A DNA stretch of 64,000 nucleotides from a virus. Below, one piece after another: positions 3,868 through 50,410 of the stretch. A model generated the notes under the pieces. The model was not told the DNA's origin, made no database searches, and saw only the letters and a program-made list of their open reading frames with translations. The stretch lies in the IMG/VR virus record IMGVR_UViG_3300023223_001361, positions 90,113 through 154,112 of that record; one strand, written 5' to 3'. Positions within the stretch are counted from its first letter, which is position 1. Every line of letters begins with the position of its first letter. The position numbers and the translations under genes were made by a program.

Positions 3868-4068
3868 ATGAATGTATACGTTGTATATACATGGACAAGA
3901 GATTACTATATTGATGAGGATGCTGCCAATTGCGAGGTATATTCTACTCTAAAAGCGGCAAGAAAAAGAGTTAAAGAATTGAAATCCGAAGCCTCGAAAA
4001 CGTATAATGCTGGTGATGATGAAGGAATTGAAATAATCCGAAAGGAGTTGAATCCGAAAAGAAAGTAA
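3868..4068 (+). CDS. hypothetical protein
   Basis: AGGA RBS; 66 aa. Confidence 0.65.
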   Translation: MNVYVVYTWTRDYYIDEDAANCEVYSTLKAARKRVKELKSEASKTYNAGDDEGIEIIRKELNPKRK

Positions 4069-4240
4069 TGGATTAAAGGAGTATTATGACACACTTAGAA
4101 CTTTTTATTCTTTATCTTCTTCTCGGTATTTTTGGTTTTATTCTTGGTTTTATTATTCAATGTTTACTAAATAAGATATCTCACCGGGTCAATTAGACAC
4201 TGTATCGCCTTCGGGAGAAACAGACAATGATTGATTTACC

Positions 4241-4312
4241 CCCTGCTGAAAGACTCCCGCTTTGGGTTGATAGCCTGAAGGTCCTCGGGTTGGGTTAGTA
4301 AGCAGGGTTTTT
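4241..4312 (+). ncRNA. GC-rich structured RNA element ending in a U tract
   Basis: CCCTGCT/AGCAGGG outer stem, GAA/AGTA internal loop, CTTTGGGT/GCCTGAAG hairpin with G-U pairs, TTTTT. Confidence 0.5.
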
Positions 4313-4439
4313 CATTGATCCCTAAAGTTTCTCAAAAGGTATACCGATACATAATTTACTAAATATTATATGCCACTTTAGGGAGATAGCTAAGCTATAG
4401 GCACAATGAATAATCAAGGAAAACCACCAGATACGACTC

Positions 4440-4709: not shown

Positions 4710-4829
4710 TTTGACACGATAAGTCAATGTATAGATATATGCAATTGAGCAAGTGAAATCGATTTCGAAAATTTTTTGCCCAATATAAAATTTGATATAA
4801 GTCGTTTAATGGGAAAAGGAAATGAGGAA

Positions 4830-5129
4830 ATGAGTAAATCATTAGAACAAACGATTAGGGAACTCTCAGAAGCTTCTGCTAAAAGTTTCGAAAATAGGAG
4901 AACTTCTAAACAAACTTCGAAATCATTAAGAAAGAAAGTTGAGGTAGATGTATCAGATGCTCAGTTGACTCTTGTTAAATTAAGTAAAGAACTTAAAGAT
5001 TCTCTTACTGGTGGAGATACAACACATGATAGAGCAGCAAAAGATATAATGAAATCAATAGAGCAAGCAGTCAAAGCCTTAGACGCTCGAAAACTTTCAA
5101 GTACTGCTAAGAAATTAGGAATTAAATAA
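4830..5129 (+). CDS. putative internal head protein
   Basis: GAGG RBS before ATG 4830; N-terminus MSKSLEQTIRELSE resembles a T4 capsid-targeting leader; basic helical body. Confidence 0.5.
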   Translation: MSKSLEQTIRELSEASAKSFENRRTSKQTSKSLRKKVEVDVSDAQLTLVKLSKELKDSLTGGDTTHDRAAKDIMKSIEQAVKALDARKLSSTAKKLGIK

Positions 5130-5632: not shown

Positions 5633-6270
5633 TGAAAACTTTCCAAGAAGCTACAAAGATATTAGCAAGAGGCACGAAAGTTCGGGTGCCTCATCAGGGT
5701 AAGCTAGTTACTGGCAAGATTGTAAGATTTGATAAGGGAGACAAACACGGATCTCCGTTCTATGTTGTTGATATAGGTAAGTTAAGATCTGAAAAAATTC
5801 CGGTTCAGAAAATTCGAGAAGATTTAAAAACTCTTCAAGAACTACAGAATGAATTAAAAGAAGCTCTCAAAAAACTGGATCCAAGAAAATTAAAGAAAGG
5901 TGATGTAGTAAGAGTAGTTTATCGTGGCGTTCCTAAAGGCGGCCCAGGTAAATTGATAACAGTACCAGATGCTAAGATTCTAAGTGCTAATACTAGCGGT
6001 AATTTATCTGTCGAATTTATCGATCCAAAAGAACCACGAAAGATTGTAAGAAGATCTGTTCAAGCTATTAAGGTTTTTGTAAAAGAAGGAAAATCTTTTG
6101 AAGAATCAAGAGCACAAGATGATGCTAAAAGAGAAAGGGAAACTCTTAAGTCAATAGAAAAAGGTTCTTTTAAAGGTGATGCTTCCGCTCGATTAAAAGC
6201 CATTCGCCAAACTGGCAGATCTACAGCAATTCGCAATCAGGCTGCAAAACTCTTAAATCAACAACGGTAG
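5632..6270 (+). CDS. putative internal head protein with two SH3/KOW-like modules
   Basis: MKTFQEA leader; RGTKVRV..GKIV and KKGDVVRVVY modules separated by acidic LKE linkers. Confidence 0.5.
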   Translation: MKTFQEATKILARGTKVRVPHQGKLVTGKIVRFDKGDKHGSPFYVVDIGKLRSEKIPVQKIREDLKTLQELQNELKEALKKLDPRKLKKGDVVRVVYRGVPKGGPGKLITVPDAKILSANTSGNLSVEFIDPKEPRKIVRRSVQAIKVFVKEGKSFEESRAQDDAKRERETLKSIEKGSFKGDASARLKAIRQTGRSTAIRNQAAKLLNQQR

Positions 6271-6374
6271 TAAAGTGGATATTAATCTGACCGAAGAGCA
6301 AGAAGGCACTCTTGAAAGTGCTCTCATTATTTTAGCTGAACTGCAAAAATTTCTCATTACACAACTAAGTCTGC

Positions 6375-8576: not shown

Positions 8577-8792
8577 ATGAAAACAATCTTTGGATACGAA
8601 TTAGAGGAAACAGGAAATGAAAGAATCCCTTATCATGCAATCGGCAAACGTGGTGCGATTTATAGTCTTGTCAGAAGGGTCGGTAATGAAAGCAGCTTGT
8701 TTGTTATCAATCGTAATGGTAACATTTGCTCTCTCAAAGGGAACTATAATTTCACAGACAAGAATGGTGAAGTCGAAGTAGTCAACTTTTAG
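8577..8792 (+). CDS. hypothetical protein
   Basis: first ORF after promoter 3; GAGGG RBS. Confidence 0.7.
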   Translation: MKTIFGYELEETGNERIPYHAIGKRGAIYSLVRRVGNESSLFVINRNGNICSLKGNYNFTDKNGEVEVVNF

Positions 8793-8978
8793 GATAAACA
8801 CCGTGAAAAATATTGACCATACTAACTACCCCAAAACACTAAAGAAAAAATCTACCTATGCAATCTGTGTCACAGATTGTGAGAAGACTCTTGCGGTCTG
8901 GAGAGATCATCCAAATGGTGGATATTACCTTGATGAAATTCACTACTGTTTAGCTGAGTTGAAAAGGAGAAGCAAATA

Positions 8979-9161
8979 ATGTACAACTATAAAGTTGAAT
9001 ATAACCGAAGGTTTATAAGAGGTAATCTAAAGGGATTAACTGTTCCAATGATTACCAGATTTGCAACACTACCATTTGCTGAGTATTTTGCTAATGTTAT
9101 AGCGAGCAAAAAACCCAGTAAAGGTTACTTTGATTATGACGTTAGAGTTTCCCAGAACTAG
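8979..9161 (+). CDS. hypothetical protein
   Basis: AGGAG RBS; 60 aa. Confidence 0.6.
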   Translation: MYNYKVEYNRRFIRGNLKGLTVPMITRFATLPFAEYFANVIASKKPSKGYFDYDVRVSQN

Positions 9162-43370: not shown

Positions 43371-44262
43371 ACCCTTATTGGCTGGTAAAGCTGAAGATCT
43401 ATCAAAAATTATTTATCCAGTATATGCTACCCCAAAGCTAGATGGTATTCGTTGTCTGAAAGTTGATGGTAAAGTAGTTACCAGAAATTTCAAAGATCTT
43501 CCAAATAAATTTACAAGAGAAATATTAGAAAAGTGTTTACCTGATGGTGTTGACGGTGAAGTGATGCTTCAGTATGGAGAAAATTTTAATACTATTCAAT
43601 CTGGTATTATGCGTCAATCTGGTGAACCATCTTTTACCTATCATATATTTGATTATGTTAAAGATGGTTTAGATAAATCGTATATACGAAGAATAGCAGA
43701 TTTGCGCCGATGGTGGTACAATGCTGGCAGTGACCTGCCACCTTGGAGAATCTATATTCTTCTCCCAACAAGATTAGATAATGAAAAACAATTACTTTCT
43801 TATGAAAAGGGGTGTTTGAAAAAAGGATATGAAGGAGTAATGATCCGATCACCCTATGGTCGTTATAAATGCGGACGTTCTACAGCTAAAGAAGGTATTC
43901 TTTTAAAGATTAAAAAATTTTTTGATTCTGAAGCAACTGTTCTTGGTCTTGTTGAAAAGATGACTAATACCAATGCTAAAGAGAAAGATGCTTTTGGGAA
44001 CTCTAAGCGTTCGTCACATAAAGCAGGAAAGGTGCCTGCTGGAACTTTAGGTGCATTGGAAGTTGAACAAAATATTCCAGGTCTAGGATTGGTCACTTTC
44101 AATATTGGTTCTGGATTTGATGATAAAATTAGAGAAAAAATTTGGAATAATTCTGATGAATATATCGGAAAATCGGTCAAATATAAGTATCAAGAATTGG
44201 GCAAAGAAGCTCCTAGATTTCCAGTATTCCTTGGTTTTCGTCATGAAGATGACATGTCATAA
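43351..44262 (+). CDS. ATP-dependent DNA ligase
   Basis: PKLDGIR, DGE, YEGVMIR, LLKIK, GSGF and RFPVF. Confidence 0.93.
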   Translation: MSEKITRPLLAGKAEDLSKIIYPVYATPKLDGIRCLKVDGKVVTRNFKDLPNKFTREILEKCLPDGVDGEVMLQYGENFNTIQSGIMRQSGEPSFTYHIFDYVKDGLDKSYIRRIADLRRWWYNAGSDLPPWRIYILLPTRLDNEKQLLSYEKGCLKKGYEGVMIRSPYGRYKCGRSTAKEGILLKIKKFFDSEATVLGLVEKMTNTNAKEKDAFGNSKRSSHKAGKVPAGTLGALEVEQNIPGLGLVTFNIGSGFDDKIREKIWNNSDEYIGKSVKYKYQELGKEAPRFPVFLGFRHEDDMS

Positions 44263-44267
44263 TTTTC

Positions 44268-44296
44268 TTGACTTTCTCTTCAGAATTTTGTATAAT
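44268..44296 (+). promoter_or_regulatory. sigma70-type promoter heading the kinase-tmRNA-tRNA operon
   Basis: TTGACT-N17-TATAAT. Confidence 0.75.
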
Positions 44297-44331
44297 TAGA
44301 GTTGCTTAAATTATTTTATGGAGATTTCCTT

Positions 44332-45051
44332 ATGTCATTCAAAGCTATCGTTTTTTTGTTAGGTCATCAAGCTGGTGTGGGCAAAGACACCCTCGGTAAT
44401 CATCTTATTGGAAAAGAAGGTTTTATTAGATTTGCATTTGCTGATAAGTTGAAAGAATCTGTAGCGGATTTGTATGGTTTCACGAGACAGCAAATGTATA
44501 CTGATGAAGGAAAGAATATACCAGATGAAAGATATGAGAAATTTGGATGGTCGGAATGTGTACCTGGAGCTGAACAATTCCATGAGGCTAGATGGATTAA
44601 GAAAGGATATTATACGCCAAGAGAAATTCTTCAAGATTTTGGTCAAGAACAAAGAGCAAGATTTCCAGATATTTGGGCAGATTATGTTTTTCGACAAATC
44701 GAAGCTAGACTAGAATCTGATCTTTCAGATTTAGAAGATAGAGAGCCTGGAAGATTTGTTGTGACAGATTTTCGCTTTCCAAATGAATTTACGGTAGCTA
44801 GGAAATATGCTGCTAAATTGAATATTAAGATTATACCTGTCAAAATTGTACGGCCTGGAAAGAGAGATGATTTTCCTGGAGTATTGAATGTTAGTGAAAC
44901 TGCTTTGAATGATTTCACACAATGGAAACATATTCTTCGGAATGATGGAAGTATTGATGATTTGTATACTAAATACAAATCTCTAGATATAAATTATTTT
45001 GGGGGCGAAATGGGTTCGACGAGGGAAGTCAGAACTGAAGTAAGCGTGTAG
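44332..45051 (+). CDS. deoxynucleoside monophosphate kinase (T4 gp1-like); last 17 codons lie inside the tmRNA
   Basis: G.AGVGKDT, FADKLKE, PREILQ.FG, VVTDFRFPNE and NDGS; GGAG RBS before ATG 44332. Confidence 0.88.
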   Translation: MSFKAIVFLLGHQAGVGKDTLGNHLIGKEGFIRFAFADKLKESVADLYGFTRQQMYTDEGKNIPDERYEKFGWSECVPGAEQFHEARWIKKGYYTPREILQDFGQEQRARFPDIWADYVFRQIEARLESDLSDLEDREPGRFVVTDFRFPNEFTVARKYAAKLNIKIIPVKIVRPGKRDDFPGVLNVSETALNDFTQWKHILRNDGSIDDLYTKYKSLDINYFGGEMGSTREVRTEVSV

Positions 45052-45377
45052 AGGATAGGTAGTAGGCCTCTTTAATCATCTGCCTAAAGCTTTAATCGCA
45101 GCTAATCAAGACGATTACGCAGTTTACGCCCTAGCGGCATAACCTGTTTCTCACTCCATAGAGAGTGAGCGATCGAAGAATGAGATGTCTATGGTAATTC
45201 TAAGATCGTCATCCACTATAGAATCGGAATTGTAAGTCTGGAGCAGTTCTTAAATAAACAGACAAAATTCTTGTTAGTTTGTTCGTTTGTAAACAAGAGT
45301 ATCAAAACGAAATATACACGTAGAAATCTTTTGTAATGTTCTCTCGGACGCCGGTTCGATTCCGGCCGCTTCCACCA
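45001..45377 (+). ncRNA. ssrA: transfer-messenger RNA (tmRNA), 377 nt; tag (A)AANQDDYAVYALAA at 45098-45142
   Basis: GGGGGCG...GGTTCGAC 5' end, 3' T-arm GCCGGTTCGATTCCGGC + CGCTTCCACCA, G3-U70, resume context TAATC-GCA, tag ending YALAA*. Confidence 0.97.
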
Positions 45378-45389
45378 AATTTTGTTTAT

Positions 45390-45464
45390 GGTCCTTTGGT
45401 GAACTGGCTATCACACTACCCTGTCACGGTGGAGTAATGGGATCGATACCCGTAGGGACCGCCA
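45390..45464 (+). tRNA. tRNA-Asp(GUC)
   Basis: cloverleaf, loop CTGTCAC, G73, CCA. Confidence 0.92.
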
Positions 45465-45482
45465 TTTATAGTGGATAAGATA

Positions 45483-45851
45483 ATGAAACATTATATTGTA
45501 GAAATTAGACAAAGTGAATTTGATGGGAGGAAAACTTTTTACTTCACTGATGCTAAGGAAGGCGAAATGTTTCCTTGTGATATAGTATTATCTGACAAAT
45601 TTGGCGATACTAGTATTTTTCCTTGTACTATAGCTTGTGCTAGATATGGTGGAACTTACGAAGGTGGGAAGTGGCTAGCATTTCCAAAAGATGCAAACAA
45701 GTTGCCTCAAGATTATAATAGTAGTGATATTTCTTGTGCTTGTTTTTGGGAAAATTATGATGAATTTGTTGGTAAAGGTGATTCACCGCAAGAAGCATAT
45801 GATAATTTATTGAAACAATTGGATGAAAGAATAAAAATGGAGACTAAATAA
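45483..45851 (+). CDS. hypothetical protein
   Basis: ARYGGTYEGGKWLAF motif. Confidence 0.65.
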   Translation: MKHYIVEIRQSEFDGRKTFYFTDAKEGEMFPCDIVLSDKFGDTSIFPCTIACARYGGTYEGGKWLAFPKDANKLPQDYNSSDISCACFWENYDEFVGKGDSPQEAYDNLLKQLDERIKMETK

Positions 45852-46135
45852 TGGGACTTATACCTGTAGGGAAAAGAGTATTAGTGAGAGAAGCAGAAGC
45901 AAAAGAAACTACAGAAAGTGGACTTTTTCTTCCTGTGAATGCTCAACAGGAAATGATTACTCAAGGTGAGGTATTATGTGTGCCAGAAGTGGTCGAAAAA
46001 GATGTTGAAATACCTGTTGACAAAGGTGATAAGATATTGTATAATAGAAATGTAGCTGTTCCAGTTAAGGATTTAACAGGGGAACAATTATTCACTGTAG
46101 ACTTCGAGAGGATTCTAGTAAAGTTTAGAGACTGA
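45851..46135 (+). CDS. groES: co-chaperonin GroES
   Basis: P.GKRVLV...E.T.SGLFLP; GEVL.V; GDKILY. Confidence 0.9.
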   Translation: MGLIPVGKRVLVREAEAKETTESGLFLPVNAQQEMITQGEVLCVPEVVEKDVEIPVDKGDKILYNRNVAVPVKDLTGEQLFTVDFERILVKFRD

Positions 46136-46175
46136 TATGAGATCGGAAATTCATCATATAAGCTTCACATCAAAT

Positions 46176-46250
46176 GGTGTGCGTAGCTTAATGGTAAAGC
46201 ACCAGGCTGTGAACCTGGTGACACGAGTTCGATTCTCGTCGTACACCCCA
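46176..46250 (+). tRNA. tRNA-His(GUG)
   Basis: G-1:C73, loop CTGTGAA, CCA. Confidence 0.93.
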
Positions 46251-46276
46251 CTTCCGCCCGTTAGGGTGTAATTTAA

Positions 46277-46366
46277 CGGGGTGTAGGTCCGTAATCTGGT
46301 AGCGGTCTCGCTTTGGAAGCGAGTGGCATAATGCCCTTGGAGGTTCAAATCCTCTTGCCCCGACCA
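46277..46366 (+). tRNA. tRNA-Pro(UGG), atypical (long variable arm, A37)
   Basis: C1-G72, A73, CTCGC-TTTGGAA-GCGAG, GGCA-TAA-TGCC extra arm, CCA. Confidence 0.85.
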
Positions 46367-46374
46367 TTTTTTAA

Positions 46375-46854
46375 ATGAGTAATTTAAGAAATCACATTAG
46401 AGTAAATTGTCAATTTTGCGATAAAAATATTTCATTTCCTAATATAACTAAGCATGAAAATGCGTGTTACTTAAATCCAAAAAATATTAGGAAATGCCCA
46501 GTTTGTGATAAAATTATCAAGAATAAAGACAGTAATACTTGTTCATATTCTTGCTCTAATACATTTTATAGAAGCGGAAGAAATGCTTCTAATTGGAATG
46601 AAGAGACATATAGAACTACTTGTTTTGAATATCATGAAAAGAAGTGTGTTATTTGTTCTGAGGAATTAATAGTAGCTGTTCATCATTTAGATGGGAATAG
46701 AGAAAATAATAAACCAGAAAATTTAATTCCTTTATGTGCAACACATCATCAATATTGGCATAGCCGATATAGATATTTAATTGAAGATAAGGTAACTCAA
46801 TATATTTTCAAATGGAAGAAAAAGAACCAAGTAAATTTACAATTAACCAAATGA
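46375..46854 (+). CDS. HNH homing endonuclease
   Basis: VHHLDGNRENN..NL..LC..HH plus N-terminal CxxC zinc fingers; inside the tRNA cluster. Confidence 0.88.
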   Translation: MSNLRNHIRVNCQFCDKNISFPNITKHENACYLNPKNIRKCPVCDKIIKNKDSNTCSYSCSNTFYRSGRNASNWNEETYRTTCFEYHEKKCVICSEELIVAVHHLDGNRENNKPENLIPLCATHHQYWHSRYRYLIEDKVTQYIFKWKKKNQVNLQLTK

Positions 46855-47114
46855 GATTAGAAGCTTTAAAATCTTGGCAGGGATCCAAAATATTTTCAAC
46901 TACTGCATCTAGAGAAATGAGATTAGCTCTTAAGCAGGTAATCAGAGAATTGGAACCGTCTAAATCAAAAAAGAAATAGATTATGATTGATCAAAGAATT
47001 TTGCTTAAGTTGAATAAAAGAGATAAGAAAAAACTTGCCATCATAAAAGTAAGAACAGAAAAAGGTCTTCGGTTCCAACTTTATAGATATGGAGGTGAGT
47101 GGAAAGAAATAATA

Positions 47115-47189
47115 TGCGGCATGGAGAAGTAGTAACTCACCGTGTTCATAACTCGGAGATCGCAAGTGCAAATCTTGTTGCCGCTACCA
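47115..47189 (+). tRNA. tRNA-Met(CAU), initiator-like
   Basis: U1-U72 mismatch, A11-U24, loop TTCATAA, CCA. Confidence 0.85.
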
Positions 47190-47208
47190 AGTTATAATGG
47201 AGAATATT

Positions 47209-47457
47209 ATGATACCTTTAGGTAAAAAAGCGAAAGATAAAATAACTGGATTTGTTGGCATCATTATAGGTCGAGCACAATACTTGACAGGTTGTGATCA
47301 ATATGCATTAGTTGCAGAAGTAGTAGAAGCTACTTAAGGACCTGGTAAGTCTGAATGGTTTGATGAGGGCAGAGTAGAAGTTGTTGGTGCTGGGATAGAA
47401 CCCTCAGAATTACAAGGGTCGATTGCAGGTGGTCCACAAAGAGATGCACCTGAGTAA
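47209..47457 (+). pseudogene. phage hypothetical gene interrupted by an in-frame TAA at 47335
   Basis: MIPLGKKAKDKITGF.G..GR..YLTGCDQY...T*GPGKSEWFDEGRVEV...GGPQ reads through in one frame; GGAG RBS. Confidence 0.7.
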
Positions 47458-47474
47458 AGTTTGGAGAAAGAATT

Positions 47475-47672
47475 ATGAAAACACATAAATTAAAAACAGA
47501 ACATGATTATAGTAATTTTGAAGTTTCTAATGCTATTCATGAGGTTTATGAATTACTTCAACATCTTAGAAAAAGTAATTCTTTATTCTTACAGATGTAT
47601 TGTAAATCAGAAAGAATATTAGGTGATTTAGATAGAAGTAATGCTGAATATTCTTTCAAATCTAAGAAATAA
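47475..47672 (+). CDS. hypothetical protein
   Basis: GGAG RBS; 65 aa. Confidence 0.55.
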   Translation: MKTHKLKTEHDYSNFEVSNAIHEVYELLQHLRKSNSLFLQMYCKSERILGDLDRSNAEYSFKSKK

Positions 47673-47718
47673 TTTTATAATGAATAAAGAAACAGAAGTG
47701 TTTAATAAAGTTGTTAAC

Positions 47719-47746
47719 GAAGGTCCGATCCCTTCTCTCCCAGCCA
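47719..47746 (+). pseudogene. 3' remnant of a tRNA (Gln-like)
   Basis: T-arm GAAGG-TCCGATC-CCTTC + TCTCCCA-G-CCA; no matching 5' half. Confidence 0.55.
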
Positions 47747-47748
47747 AC

Positions 47749-47843
47749 GGAAGTGTAAGCCGAAAGATTCTGGGTAGCGGTGGTCGCCTTGAAAGCGAAG
47801 TGTCTTAACCGACGTGTGGGTTCGAATCCTACCACTTCCGCCA
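47749..47843 (+). tRNA. tRNA-Ser(UGA)
   Basis: GGAAGTG/CACTTCC, G73, loop CTTGAAA, long variable arm, enlarged D-loop. Confidence 0.9.
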
Positions 47844-47846
47844 TTT

Positions 47847-47934
47847 GGAAACTTGGCAGAGCGGTTTATTGCGCTGGTTTGCTAAATCAGTAAGTGTAAA
47901 AGCTTCATAGGTTCGAATCCTATAGTTTCCGCCA
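47847..47934 (+). tRNA. tRNA-Ser(GCU)
   Basis: loop TTGCTAA, long variable arm, G73, CCA. Confidence 0.93.
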
Positions 47935-47936
47935 TA

Positions 47937-48042
47937 TGCGAGTTGGTGAATAATCCAGCGAAAGGCTTTAGATCGAGTAGTGAAATCACGCTGGTAGTTC
48001 ATAACCAGTATAGAGTATAACGGGAAAACTCGCTCGCGACCA
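47937..48042 (+). ncRNA. 106-nt tRNA-like RNA with acceptor stem and CCA but non-canonical arms
   Basis: TGCGAGT/GCTCGCG-A-CCA closes several short hairpins; no TTC T-loop. Confidence 0.65.
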
Positions 48043-48117
48043 GTTTTAAGTTAGAGATGGAAAAATGAAAAGTAAAGTTAGAAATTCAAATACAGAAAGT
48101 GAACGAGAACCCAATAA

Positions 48118-48193
48118 GGGTCCATCGTCTACGCTGGTTAGGATACTTGGCTTTCACCCAGGAGAAGTGGGATCGTCGCCGCTGGACCTACCA
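48118..48193 (+). tRNA. tRNA-Glu(UUC), degenerate T-arm
   Basis: loop CTTTCAC, CCA; G1-U72; T-loop ATCGTCG with disrupted stem. Confidence 0.8.
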
Positions 48194-48227
48194 TTTTTTC
48201 TTATTATCGATACGCTGTATAATATAC

Positions 48228-48313
48228 GGGGTATCGCCAGAGTGGGAGCTGTGAGCGGTCTGTAAAATCGCTGTCTTAGGACTAGGAAGGTTCGATTCCT
48301 TCATGCCCCACCA
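48228..48313 (+). tRNA. tRNA-Tyr(GUA)
   Basis: loop CTGTAAA, long variable arm, A73, CCA. Confidence 0.92.
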
Positions 48314-48331
48314 ATTAAGATTTACTTTTTT

Positions 48332-48568
48332 ATGTTGATGATTAAAGTTCAAAATAGTTCCGAATTTTCTAAAGCAGTTGAGAAGATAGTAAACGATACT
48401 GATTATAATTATCTTGAAGCTATTTTACAGTATGCCCAATCTAGAGGTATAGAACTTGAAAGTGTTCCAAAACTTTTAACCCAAAAACTTAAAGTTGAAT
48501 TAGAAAAAGAATCCTATGACATGAATCGTCTAGGGAAAAAACCAAGCTCTTTGCCTGTGGATGATTAG
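48332..48568 (+). CDS. gp33: late-promoter transcription co-activator
   Basis: FS..VE.IV...YLEAI..Y...IE.E.V.KL....LK..LE.E; precedes gp59/gp32. Confidence 0.85.
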   Translation: MLMIKVQNSSEFSKAVEKIVNDTDYNYLEAILQYAQSRGIELESVPKLLTQKLKVELEKESYDMNRLGKKPSSLPVDD

Positions 48569-48770
48569 TATATTTTTGAAATTGCTCATTACTGTTTTTC
48601 ATTTAATGTTTTCTATTTGTTTTATGGTATGTTTGATGAGGCCTGGAAAACAACCAGAAAATAAGTTTGAACGTTTTTGTGAAAACTTTACTTTTACTGT
48701 TCTTTGCGGTGCTGGTATTTTGTGTATGGGATTATTGACTATTGGTTGGTGGAGGTGGTTAATTTCTTAA
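48561..48770 (+). CDS. small membrane protein
   Basis: two TM helices. Confidence 0.55.
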   Translation: MISIFLKLLITVFHLMFSICFMVCLMRPGKQPENKFERFCENFTFTVLCGAGILCMGLLTIGWWRWLIS

Positions 48771-49385
48771 ATGAGTAAGATAACTCCTTTTGAATGTTAC
48801 AAAATGTATATTGCATTGAAGACTCATTTCAATAACGAGAAATATGATTACCAAAAATTAAATGGCAGAGTAAGAGCAAATAAAGATTCATTTGAAAAAA
48901 GAAATGATAAAGCTTTTTTTTATCGTTTAGTAAAAAAATACGATGACAAGAAATTTTTAGAACATTTTTTTGTAGCTAATTTCGTTGAAAATAATGGTAT
49001 GTGGATAGGTGATGCTGTTGAAGAAGATGCAAATAATGTCTATCTGGAATGGAGAAAGAAAACTGATAGTATTGGATATATGTTTCGAGAAGATATGAAA
49101 ATTCTTCTTGGGAAGATATCTGGTAAAAAGGTAGCTGCGATTTATGAAGTTCTAGATGGTCAACATCCTTTATTTTTGAAATCCGTTCTGGAGAAAGATA
49201 TTTCATTTGAGACATTTACGATATTACTTACTATCGTATCTGATAAGTTTAAGAATGAAGCCCTTAGCGATAGGATAGAAGATGAGATAATTTGGCCGGA
49301 ATATCGGAAAAAAGCCGAGAAATATCAACCATTTTTGGATATCGAATCGGTCCGATTTAGACAGATAATATACGATTTAACTTGA
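48771..49385 (+). CDS. gp59: helicase loader
   Basis: YKMY.ALK.HF...YDY.K.NG.V....SF.KR.D..FF..L; synteny with gp33/gp32. Confidence 0.9.
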   Translation: MSKITPFECYKMYIALKTHFNNEKYDYQKLNGRVRANKDSFEKRNDKAFFYRLVKKYDDKKFLEHFFVANFVENNGMWIGDAVEEDANNVYLEWRKKTDSIGYMFREDMKILLGKISGKKVAAIYEVLDGQHPLFLKSVLEKDISFETFTILLTIVSDKFKNEALSDRIEDEIIWPEYRKKAEKYQPFLDIESVRFRQIIYDLT

Positions 49386-49409
49386 CAAAAATCATAAATA
49401 TGGTATAAT
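49382..49409 (+). promoter_or_regulatory. sigma70-type promoter of gene 32
   Basis: TTGACA-N16-TATAAT with TG extension. Confidence 0.7.
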
Positions 49410-49486
49410 ATTTGCATAAATTAATTCGTCATTTGTTTTTGTGAAATAGTCGAATACTAAAAATACACTGAATAAGGAAAAATACT

Positions 49487-50410
49487 ATGTCCAAGTCATT
49501 TAGCCAACTACGTAAAAACCGTAATAGTCGTCTGCAAGAATTAAATAAAGCAGTCGACGAAGAAAAAACACCCTCATATAAACAAAACGATGATCGTTTT
49601 TGGAAGTTAACCAGAGATGATGCAGGGAATGGTTCTGCTCTTATTCGTTTTTTGGATGCCCCAAAAGATGAAGATTGGGCATGGGTTCGTTATTTTGATC
49701 ATGGATTCCAAGGTCCTGGTGGATGGTTTATTGAGAAGTCTTTGACGACAATCGGTAAATCAGATCCGGTCAGTGAACTTAATCGTTCTTTATTTCAAAC
49801 TGGAATCAAAGCTAATGAGGAGCAAGCTCGTGAGCAGAAAAGACGTTTACATTATGTTTCTAATATTCTTGTTATAAAGGATCCTAAGAATTCGGATAAT
49901 GATGGTAAGGTTTTTCTTTTCCGATATGGAAAGAAAATCTTTGAATTGCTTCAAGGTGTAATGTCACCTGAAACTGATGAGCTAGATCCAGATAATACTC
50001 CAGATGAAATTAATCCATTTTGTATGTGGGAAGGTGCGAATCTTAAACTTCGGGTTCGAATGGCTGATAAGTATCCAGCTTATGATAAGTCTTCTTTTGA
50101 AGATTGTTCTGCAATTTTTCCGAAAGATGATGCTCAATATGAAAAGCTTTGGGAAAGTCAACATTCACTTCAAGATTTAATTTCTGAAGATAAGTTTAAA
50201 ACTTATGAACAGTTGCAAGCAAGACTTAATAGAGTTTTGGGAACTGGTCTTCCTGATGTTTCCAGGAATGTAAAAGCCGAAACTTCAACTATTACTTCAG
50301 CAACCGTTGAAGAAGTTGAGTTAGATGATGCTGAAGATTTGGGTGATAGTGGTGATGAAACCGAGGCTGAAGGTCTTGAGTTTCTAGAAAAGTTAGCTGC
50401 TGATAGTTAA
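49487..50410 (+). CDS. gp32: single-stranded DNA-binding protein
   Basis: DDRFWK...GNG.A.IRFL, HGFQGPGGWFIE, FRYGKKIF, YDKS.F, acidic tail. Confidence 0.96.
   Translation: MSKSFSQLRKNRNSRLQELNKAVDEEKTPSYKQNDDRFWKLTRDDAGNGSALIRFLDAPKDEDWAWVRYFDHGFQGPGGWFIEKSLTTIGKSDPVSELNRSLFQTGIKANEEQAREQKRRLHYVSNILVIKDPKNSDNDGKVFLFRYGKKIFELLQGVMSPETDELDPDNTPDEINPFCMWEGANLKLRVRMADKYPAYDKSSFEDCSAIFPKDDAQYEKLWESQHSLQDLISEDKFKTYEQLQARLNRVLGTGLPDVSRNVKAETSTITSATVEEVELDDAEDLGDSGDETEAEGLEFLEKLAADS

Follow-up and report, generated by a model that had tools for sequence, protein, structure and literature searches.

A 106-nt CCA-ending unit in the tRNA cluster of an uncultured T4-type phage is most likely a decaying tRNA gene

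Between tRNA-Ser(GCU) and tRNA-Glu(UUC) in the RNA-gene island of an uncultured T4-type phage lies a 106-nt unit with an encoded 3′ CCA (positions 47937-48042; this and all features below are on the plus strand unless stated otherwise). The unit is real and clearly tRNA-derived. Most probably it is a tRNA gene in decay and does not represent a novel class of RNA; remnants of tRNAs, and RNAs that resemble them, are already known from phage tRNA clusters. More specifically, we hold with moderate confidence that it is a decaying paralogue of the tRNA-Met type, from an initiator-type lineage, which is probably still cut out by RNase P.

The stretch analysed (the window, 64,000 nt) comprises positions 90113-154112 of a 160,399-bp virus record (IMGVR_UViG_3300023223_001361) that carries direct terminal repeats and is rated complete; the GC content of the genome is 34%. 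The gp33, gp59 and gp32 genes lie at 48332-50410 of the window, and gp32 is ∼50% identical to cyanomyophage gp32. Upstream of gp33, the RNA-gene island (45001-48313) holds tmRNA, tRNA-Asp, tRNA-His, a weak tRNA-Pro-like gene, tRNA-Met, a weak tRNA-Ser(UGA)-like gene, tRNA-Ser(GCU), the 106-nt unit, a weak tRNA-Glu and tRNA-Tyr, broken up by small ORFs and one HNH-type gene. An initial annotation had described the unit as a tRNA-shaped, CCA-ending element within this tRNA operon. Its coordinates and sequence were verified: it starts 2 nt (TA) after tRNA-Ser(GCU) (47847-47934), a canonical gene called by ARAGORN that reaches 55.4 bits with the Rfam tRNA model, and the same 2-nt spacing separates the two tRNA-Ser genes. 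The downstream neighbour is tRNA-Glu(UUC) (48118-48193), as annotated, but this gene is sub-threshold, with an Rfam score of 28.7 bits and an ARAGORN call only at a lowered threshold; its T loop reads AUCGUCG. A reverse-strand ORF at 47829-48002 (57 aa), which overlaps tRNA-Ser in antisense, was judged spurious.

No terminator was predicted across 44000-49600. Because neither a terminator nor a strong promoter is predicted between the unit and its flanking tRNAs, the unit would be co-transcribed with them. The nearest strong plus-strand promoter, at 46017-46045 upstream of tRNA-His, likely drives the downstream RNA genes; it is of the sigma-70 type, perfect in 12 of 12 positions (TTGACA, 17 nt, TATAAT), and lies inside the 3′ end of a cpn10-like gene.

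The two ends of the unit form a 7-bp acceptor stem, TGCGAGT (47937-47943) with GCTCGCG (48032-48038), in which five Watson-Crick pairs stand between two flanking G.U pairs. The 3′ strand continues into the discriminator A48039 and the CCA at 48040-48042, and U1 is as in the tRNA-Met genes of the clade; acceptor, discriminator and encoded CCA had all been read correctly before. The 3′ sequence, ACTCGCTCGCGACCA, also allows a second register, TGCGAGT with ACTCGCT (48028-48034), composed of U1.U72 and six Watson-Crick pairs and leaving the tail CGCGACCA. For the unit folded by itself, most of the ensemble adopts the register that ends in ACCA (0.55-0.95 vs 0.04 for the alternative).

The interior follows the order of a cloverleaf. 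Two unpaired nucleotides lead into a 4-bp D-type stem, GTGA (47946-47949) with TCAC (47986-47989), which encloses an oversized 'D loop' of 36 nt (47950-47985, GC 39%) holding the AGC/GCT and part of the GTG/CAC complements. After one unpaired nucleotide comes a 5-bp anticodon-type hairpin, CTGGT/ACCAG (47991-48008), with the 8-nt loop AGTTCATA; CAT stands at 48000-48002, and the hairpin contains a block, GTTCATAACC, common to tRNA-Met genes. A 4-nt variable region separates it from the arm that replaces the T arm (48013-48031), GAGT/ACTC around ATAACGGGAAA, which has 4 bp, sits flush on the acceptor and lacks a TPsiC motif. In the pair table, all 20 proposed pairs are standard (18 Watson-Crick and two G.U). 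The internal complements listed by the initial annotation (TGG/CCA, AGC/GCT, GTG/CAC, CTGGT/ACCAG, TATA/TATA and CGGG-AAAA-CTCG) were each found. The last of these, proposed as a hairpin in place of a T arm, is present, but it contains one G.T pair and shares G48032 with the acceptor, and so competes with the seventh acceptor pair. An internal 35-nt duplication was considered as the source of the D-loop insert and rejected: the repeat of 3-19 against 38-52 was equalled in 147 of 1000 trials and is not significant.

This arrangement is hardly expected by chance. When the local region was shuffled 20,000 times, 40 shuffles had a 7-bp closure followed by NCCA that began 1-4 nt behind the preceding tRNA (p ∼0.002); in the window itself, 90 of 63,850 positions have such a closure. 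Shuffling the interior 200,000 times under an unchanged acceptor gave the complete cloverleaf layout 13 times (p ∼6.5e-5 given closure); the layout criteria were chosen after the sequence had been seen, yet they are those of the canonical tRNA. The GC content of the unit, 45%, places it in the top 2.5% of 106-nt windows and compares with 19-28% in the neighbouring spacers. Its minimum free energy (-25.5 kcal/mol, z -1.03) is not exceptional against shuffles. The thermodynamic fold test is uninformative for the unit, because the bona fide tRNA-Met of the cluster fails it as well, forming no cloverleaf in silico and showing a predicted acceptor pairing probability of 0.01 or less.

The unit has the acceptor, discriminator and 3′ CCA of a canonical tRNA, and departs from one in every arm of the interior. 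A canonical D arm has 3-4 bp and a 7-11 nt loop with G18G19, whereas here GTGA/TCAC encloses 36 nt; a canonical anticodon arm has 5 bp and a 7-nt loop with U33 and a purine at 37, whereas here the 5-bp stem carries the 8-nt loop AGUUCAUA; and where a canonical T arm pairs 5 bp around a 7-nt T-Psi-C-R-A loop, the unit has GAGT/ACTC with the 11-nt loop AUAACGGGAAA. A canonical tRNA was taken to be a sequence that scores at least the Rfam RF00005 gathering threshold of 29 bits or is called by a detector. RF00005 gave no match to the unit at E values up to 10, and ARAGORN, with introns allowed, did not call it at the default threshold or at relaxed ones, which went down to 50% for the isolated unit; its single call in the vicinity, obtained at a 60% threshold, covers a different interval (47964-48053). 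From the three clade tRNA-Met genes we built a covariance model, which scored the unit at 5.8 bits (E ∼2, 47989-48042 only), against 98.7 bits for the real gene. A 26-bit match to Rfam sX4 overlaps the unit but spans tRNA-Ser and is meaningless. The earlier statement that the unit cannot be a normal adaptor is thus borne out by the missing TPsiC loop, the 8-nt anticodon loop, the 36-nt D loop and the rejection by detectors. An RNA released from this locus, lacking a T loop, its D-loop partner and a 7-nt anticodon loop, should not form the L shape, be charged or decode. The initial annotation had also named a canonical tRNA with an insertion as an outcome that would overturn its reading. Half of this holds, in that tRNA-Met is the closest relative and a D-loop insert sits within a cloverleaf layout; the other half does not, since trimming the insert to 7-11 nt still yields no ARAGORN call. 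Loss of indispensable tRNA elements (absent T loop, oversized D loop, 8-nt anticodon loop) is what marks a tRNA pseudogene.

For comparison, we searched for relatives of the phage. Among 5.8 billion protein clusters, queried with gp59, gp33 and gp32, the clade is represented by only two further sampled genomes: L002, a 47.8-kb Logan contig whose gp32 is 71% identical, and L005, which together with L003 makes up two ENA contigs from one sample (gp33 79% and gp59 72% identity). L002 and L005 are syntenic with the window and have the same RNA island.

Compared with 25 RNA genes from the three related clusters, the unit is most similar to the three tRNA-Met(CAU) genes (window 47115-47189; L002 8051-8126; L005 3953-4027), with z-scores of 4.3-4.8, reached in 0-1 of 300 shuffles; the next gene reaches 2.9. 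The similarity falls into three blocks: TGCGAG-TGG-GAA at the 5′ end, GTTCATAACC around CAT, and CTCGC-ACCA at the 3′ end. Among the genes compared, only the tRNA-Met genes, the L002 gene described below and the unit combine a U1 start with an A73-CCA end, and in all of them U1/U72 is unpaired, except in the preferred register of the unit (U1.G72). The unit and the clade tRNA-Met genes further share G2-C71, G4-C69, a G-N-G-A D stem and CAU at the anticodon position. In the alternative register, the acceptor of the unit equals that of L002 tRNA-Met in six of seven pairs, the seventh being flipped; relative to its tRNA-Met relatives the unit shows A-U to U-A flips at pairs 7:66, 11:24 and 29:41. 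The differences are the 36-nt D loop, the 8-nt anticodon loop, a 4-bp arm with an 11-nt loop where tRNA-Met has a T arm of 5 bp and 7 nt, and four extra nucleotides on the 3′ acceptor side, which create the two registers. Pairing is cleaner in the unit, the genuine tRNA-Met having A.A and U.U mismatches. Unrelated tRNAs can reach z-scores of 6-9 against each other through their shared T arms. The resemblance to tRNA-Met is modest, yet specific to the Met genes and independent of the T arm; a pseudogene is expected to resemble, specifically, a functional tRNA gene from its own genome or clade. Neither half of the unit is significantly similar to tRNA-Met by itself. A MAFFT alignment hinted that the unit might be a fusion, its 5′ half coming from an L002-type gene and its 3′ half from a tRNA-Met-type gene, but this was dropped as the halves are not significantly similar to either. 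In all three tRNA-Met(CAU) genes of the clade, U1/U72 is unpaired and followed by A73, an initiator-like end whose bases differ from the bacterial C1xA72.

The slot after tRNA-Ser(GCU) has different contents in the two relatives. In L002 it is occupied by a different tRNA-like gene of 83 nt (8595-8677). This gene has the flanks of the unit (ATATG before, ACCA-RTTTTARGTTAGAG after), and likewise a four-helix layout, A73, CCA and a U1 that faces U or G. Unlike the unit, it has a D loop of normal size, seven nucleotides in the anticodon loop and a T arm of 5 bp, besides its shorter length. Its acceptor carries U1.U72 and shows two compensatory pair differences from that of the unit; the D stem is CTCA/TGAG with an 11-nt loop, the anticodon stem is G+C-rich, the anticodon loop AUCAAAG contains CAA (complementary to UUG, and one change from CAU), and the T loop is TTGGATT. 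The minimum free energy structure of this gene is the cloverleaf; its Rfam tRNA score is only 21.5 bits, below standard detection, and it could be a working non-standard tRNA. Its interior is not significantly similar to that of the unit (z 0.96), and the slot genes of the window and L002 are 56% identical, compared with 71-86% for eight orthologous RNA genes. In L005, the CCA of tRNA-Ser(GCU) runs straight into the shared post-slot spacer GATTTTAA, so that the slot is empty. The three genomes therefore form a graded series: a near-normal tRNA-like gene in L002, an aberrant one in the window and none in L005. As expected of a pseudogene, the slot is not conserved among close relatives and evolves faster than the neighbouring RNA genes (n = 3 genomes).

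Homologues of the unit were found neither in 50,697 phage records nor in IMG/VR, JGI metagenomes or GTDB genomes. The best blastn hit in the phage records had E = 4, and there was no match in the T4 family; queries of IMG/VR with gp59, gp32, a 20-mer of the unit, the tRNA-Ser 3′ end and the tmRNA tag gave no relatives. A scan of GTDB with the 18-mer of the anticodon hairpin returned six matches, all in coding-like DNA, where by our estimate ∼17 are expected by chance in 596 Gb. The initial annotation had called the unit a tRNA mimic and suggested that it might be a decoy, allowing that a lack of homologues with covarying stems would speak against it. None was found in the four collections searched, and the slot is different or empty in the two nearest relatives; the name and the decoy ideas are unsupported. 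A scan of JGI metagenomes for the 3′ end of tRNA-Ser yielded a single phage tRNA cluster, the unrelated L004, in which ∼330 nt (4001-4328, minus strand) between tRNA-Ser(UGA) and tRNA-Leu(UAA) contain no detected tRNA; this gap could be another non-tRNA RNA gene.

Decay is also seen elsewhere in the cluster. Alignment to the intact L005 gene (4558-4631) identified a 32-nt 3′ remnant of tRNA-Gln(UUG) at 47715-47746, ending in …TCTCTCCCAGCCA; its 5′ part is replaced in the window by AT-rich DNA with a 65-aa ORF. As read from the aligned sequences, this remnant is evidence of tRNA gene decay in the genome of the window, and its GC content is 58%. The window tRNA-Pro scores 27 bits, compared with 63-66 bits for its orthologues in L002 and L005, and tRNA-Glu scores 28.7 bits, compared with 43.1 and 63.7 bits. 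The tRNA-Pro(UGG)-like gene (46277-46366) has a long variable arm. The AT-rich spacer downstream of the unit (48043-48117, GC 28%) aligns with the two ends of an RF-1-domain gene that is whole in L002 and otherwise absent from the window: 48050-48059 corresponds to its RBS/ATG, and 48060-48117 to its last ∼30 nt and trailer. The same junction, AGATRGAAAAATGAAA, occurs in L005, so either L002 gained the RF-1-domain gene or the other two genomes lost it. In L002 this gene (8694-9131) has a GGQ motif and directly follows the slot gene. It contains an in-frame TGA (8901-8903) inside the conserved helix following the GGQ domain, where the gene caller split it into products of 69 and 65 aa in the same frame; the TGA could reflect a pseudogene, a sequencing error or recoding.

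Like the tRNA-Gln remnant and other tRNA remnants of phage clusters, the unit is tRNA-derived, has a high GC content in an AT-rich genome, is missing or different in close relatives and belongs to a cluster interrupted by HNH-type endonuclease genes. Unlike them, it is untruncated and keeps both acceptor strands and four helices, so that it could still be processed as one unit. We propose the following course of events. The ancestor would have carried, in the slot after tRNA-Ser(GCU), a gene of the initiator-type tRNA-Met lineage, with an unpaired U1/U72 end, A73, CCA and CAU. This gene now appears to be in the course of being lost, the D loop having presumably grown to 36 nt and the anticodon loop to 8, and the T arm having been reduced to 4 bp with an 11-nt loop. 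Bacterial RNase P recognises and cleaves minihelices in which the acceptor stem stacks directly on a flush helix and the 3′ end reads ACCA. As the unit offers an acceptor, a flush 4-bp stem and ACCA, RNase P probably cuts at 47936/47937, so that only 2 nt would remain as a trailer on tRNA-Ser(GCU); the tRNA-like excision expected by the initial annotation is thus reasonable. The RNA set free would be neither aminoacylated nor active in decoding and would have no function of its own.

Several observations run against decay. The standard pairs and the A-U to U-A flips suggest past selection for pairing during at least part of the history of the unit. A GC content of 45% in a 34% genome is RNA-gene-like, though the dead tRNA-Gln remnant reaches 58%. 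Phage genomes usually purge useless DNA, and with three clade genomes the lack of conservation is weakly sampled. Because all 20 pairs are standard, three flips are apparent and conserved non-decoding tRNA-like RNAs exist in other phages, rival explanations keep some weight.

The rival that survives best, unlikely but to be taken seriously, is that the unit is a working, non-decoding, tRNA-like stable RNA of the T4 C/D kind, excised by RNase P, stabilized by its acceptor and CCA, and acting through its remodelled core. It could, for instance, be a decoy that draws off a host nuclease or a different factor recognising the acceptor end or the CAU anticodon arm of initiator tRNA. T4 RNAs C and D are conserved non-decoding tRNA-like RNAs of phage tRNA clusters whose role is unknown (PMC3014915). 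Their genes, rnaC (species 1, 139 nt) and rnaD (species 2, 119 nt), lie at 70908-71171 of NC_000866, at the downstream end of the tRNA run and 1-6 nt from the neighbouring RNA gene. Both are longer than a tRNA and have tRNA-like ends, that of rnaD being an encoded CACCA. The unit, 2 nt after a tRNA in a T4-type tRNA operon, matches them in position and kind, and to this extent the likeness drawn by the initial annotation stands. It does not extend to sequence: alignments of the unit to rnaC and rnaD gave z-scores of -0.30 and -0.83, and rnaC has preserved its canonical T arm, CCGGGTTCGAATCCCGG, while a T loop is missing from the unit. Moreover, rnaC folds far better than its shuffles (z -4.6), whereas the unit does not (z -1.0).

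A stable RNA would account for the four intact helices with their apparent compensatory flips against tRNA-Met, for a cloverleaf layout far beyond chance and for the RNA-gene-like GC content. It would also fit the L002 slot gene, which keeps the unusual U1.U72/A73/CCA end despite two compensatory acceptor changes, as well as a neighbourhood of translation and rescue genes (tmRNA, and the RF-1-domain gene in L002). Were it correct, the unit would be unusual in keeping the anticodon arm and discarding the T loop, the reverse of T4 RNA C, and would point to initiator tRNA as a target in phage-host conflict. Against it stand the lack of a homologue in the databases searched, slot contents that are unconserved in three genomes and absent from one, the dissimilarity to rnaC and rnaD, a fold no stabler than shuffles and the failure to identify a candidate partner; inherited helices would also be shown by a young pseudogene. 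A broader conjecture, to which we give little credence, is that the slot holds fast-evolving non-decoding RNAs derived from initiator tRNA, namely the 106-nt unit and the 83-nt CAA gene of L002, which keep the initiator-type acceptor end, are processed like tRNAs and serve as decoys, or as competitors, for some host factor by which initiator tRNA is recognised. Such a factor might be, for example, a VapC-type anticodon-loop nuclease, or a formylation or rescue factor, and the divergence of the slot would then reflect an arms race instead of decay.

We also think it improbable that the unit is kept purely as a processing handle, its RNase P 5′ cut trimming the tRNA-Ser(GCU) trailer and separating the upstream tRNAs from the downstream transcript. 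Selection would then act only on the acceptor, the flush stem and ACCA, as in tRNA-like punctuation elements. These RNase P requirements are indeed the best-kept features of the unit, the spacing to tRNA-Ser(GCU) equals that between the two tRNA-Ser genes, and the interior varies freely between the window and L002. However, in L005 a near-identical tRNA-Ser(GCU) is followed by an AT-rich spacer with no such element, so a handle is dispensable, and bacterial 3′ exonucleases trim tRNA trailers without the help of a tRNA-like element.

It is very doubtful that the unit is an unusual working tRNA that decodes, for example, as Met/Ile(CAU) or reads four bases through its 8-nt loop. The CAT hairpin at the anticodon position, the acceptor stem, A73 and CCA would agree with this, and tRNA-Asp and tRNA-Glu of the clade tolerate odd T loops; but the unit has neither a T loop nor a G18G19-type elbow partner, its acceptor/T stack is 11 instead of 12 bp, the D loop measures 36 nt, every tRNA detector fails even once the insert is removed, and the unit is not conserved. 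That the unit lacks tRNA ancestry and arose in a spacer by chance is scarcely credible: the z-score of -1.03 and the shortness of the single helices would allow it, but the closure and layout statistics, a GC content well above that of the spacers, the specific similarity to tRNA-Met and a clear cloverleaf as the positional counterpart in L002 all speak against it.

As a decaying tRNA gene, the unit matters mainly for annotation, in that it would represent a phage tRNA gene midway through loss, whose ends and helices persist while the working loops are gone. Phages are increasingly reported to encode non-decoding tRNA-like RNAs, and relics of this sort can pass for 'tRNA mimics' if read without comparison. 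The unit serves as a worked negative example: the bar should be conservation and covariation across relatives, not cloverleaf-like pairing alone.

Two further features of the island were observed in the relatives. In L005, the spacer between tRNA-Ser(GCU) and tRNA-Glu (4822-4919), which lacks the unit, contains a promoter-like sequence (TTGACT, 17 nt, TAAGAT). In both relatives, the first ∼50 nt of the tmRNA gene also belong to a called dNMP-kinase-like gene (L002, 5320-5931 with 5881-6277; L005, 754-1395 with 1345-1719).
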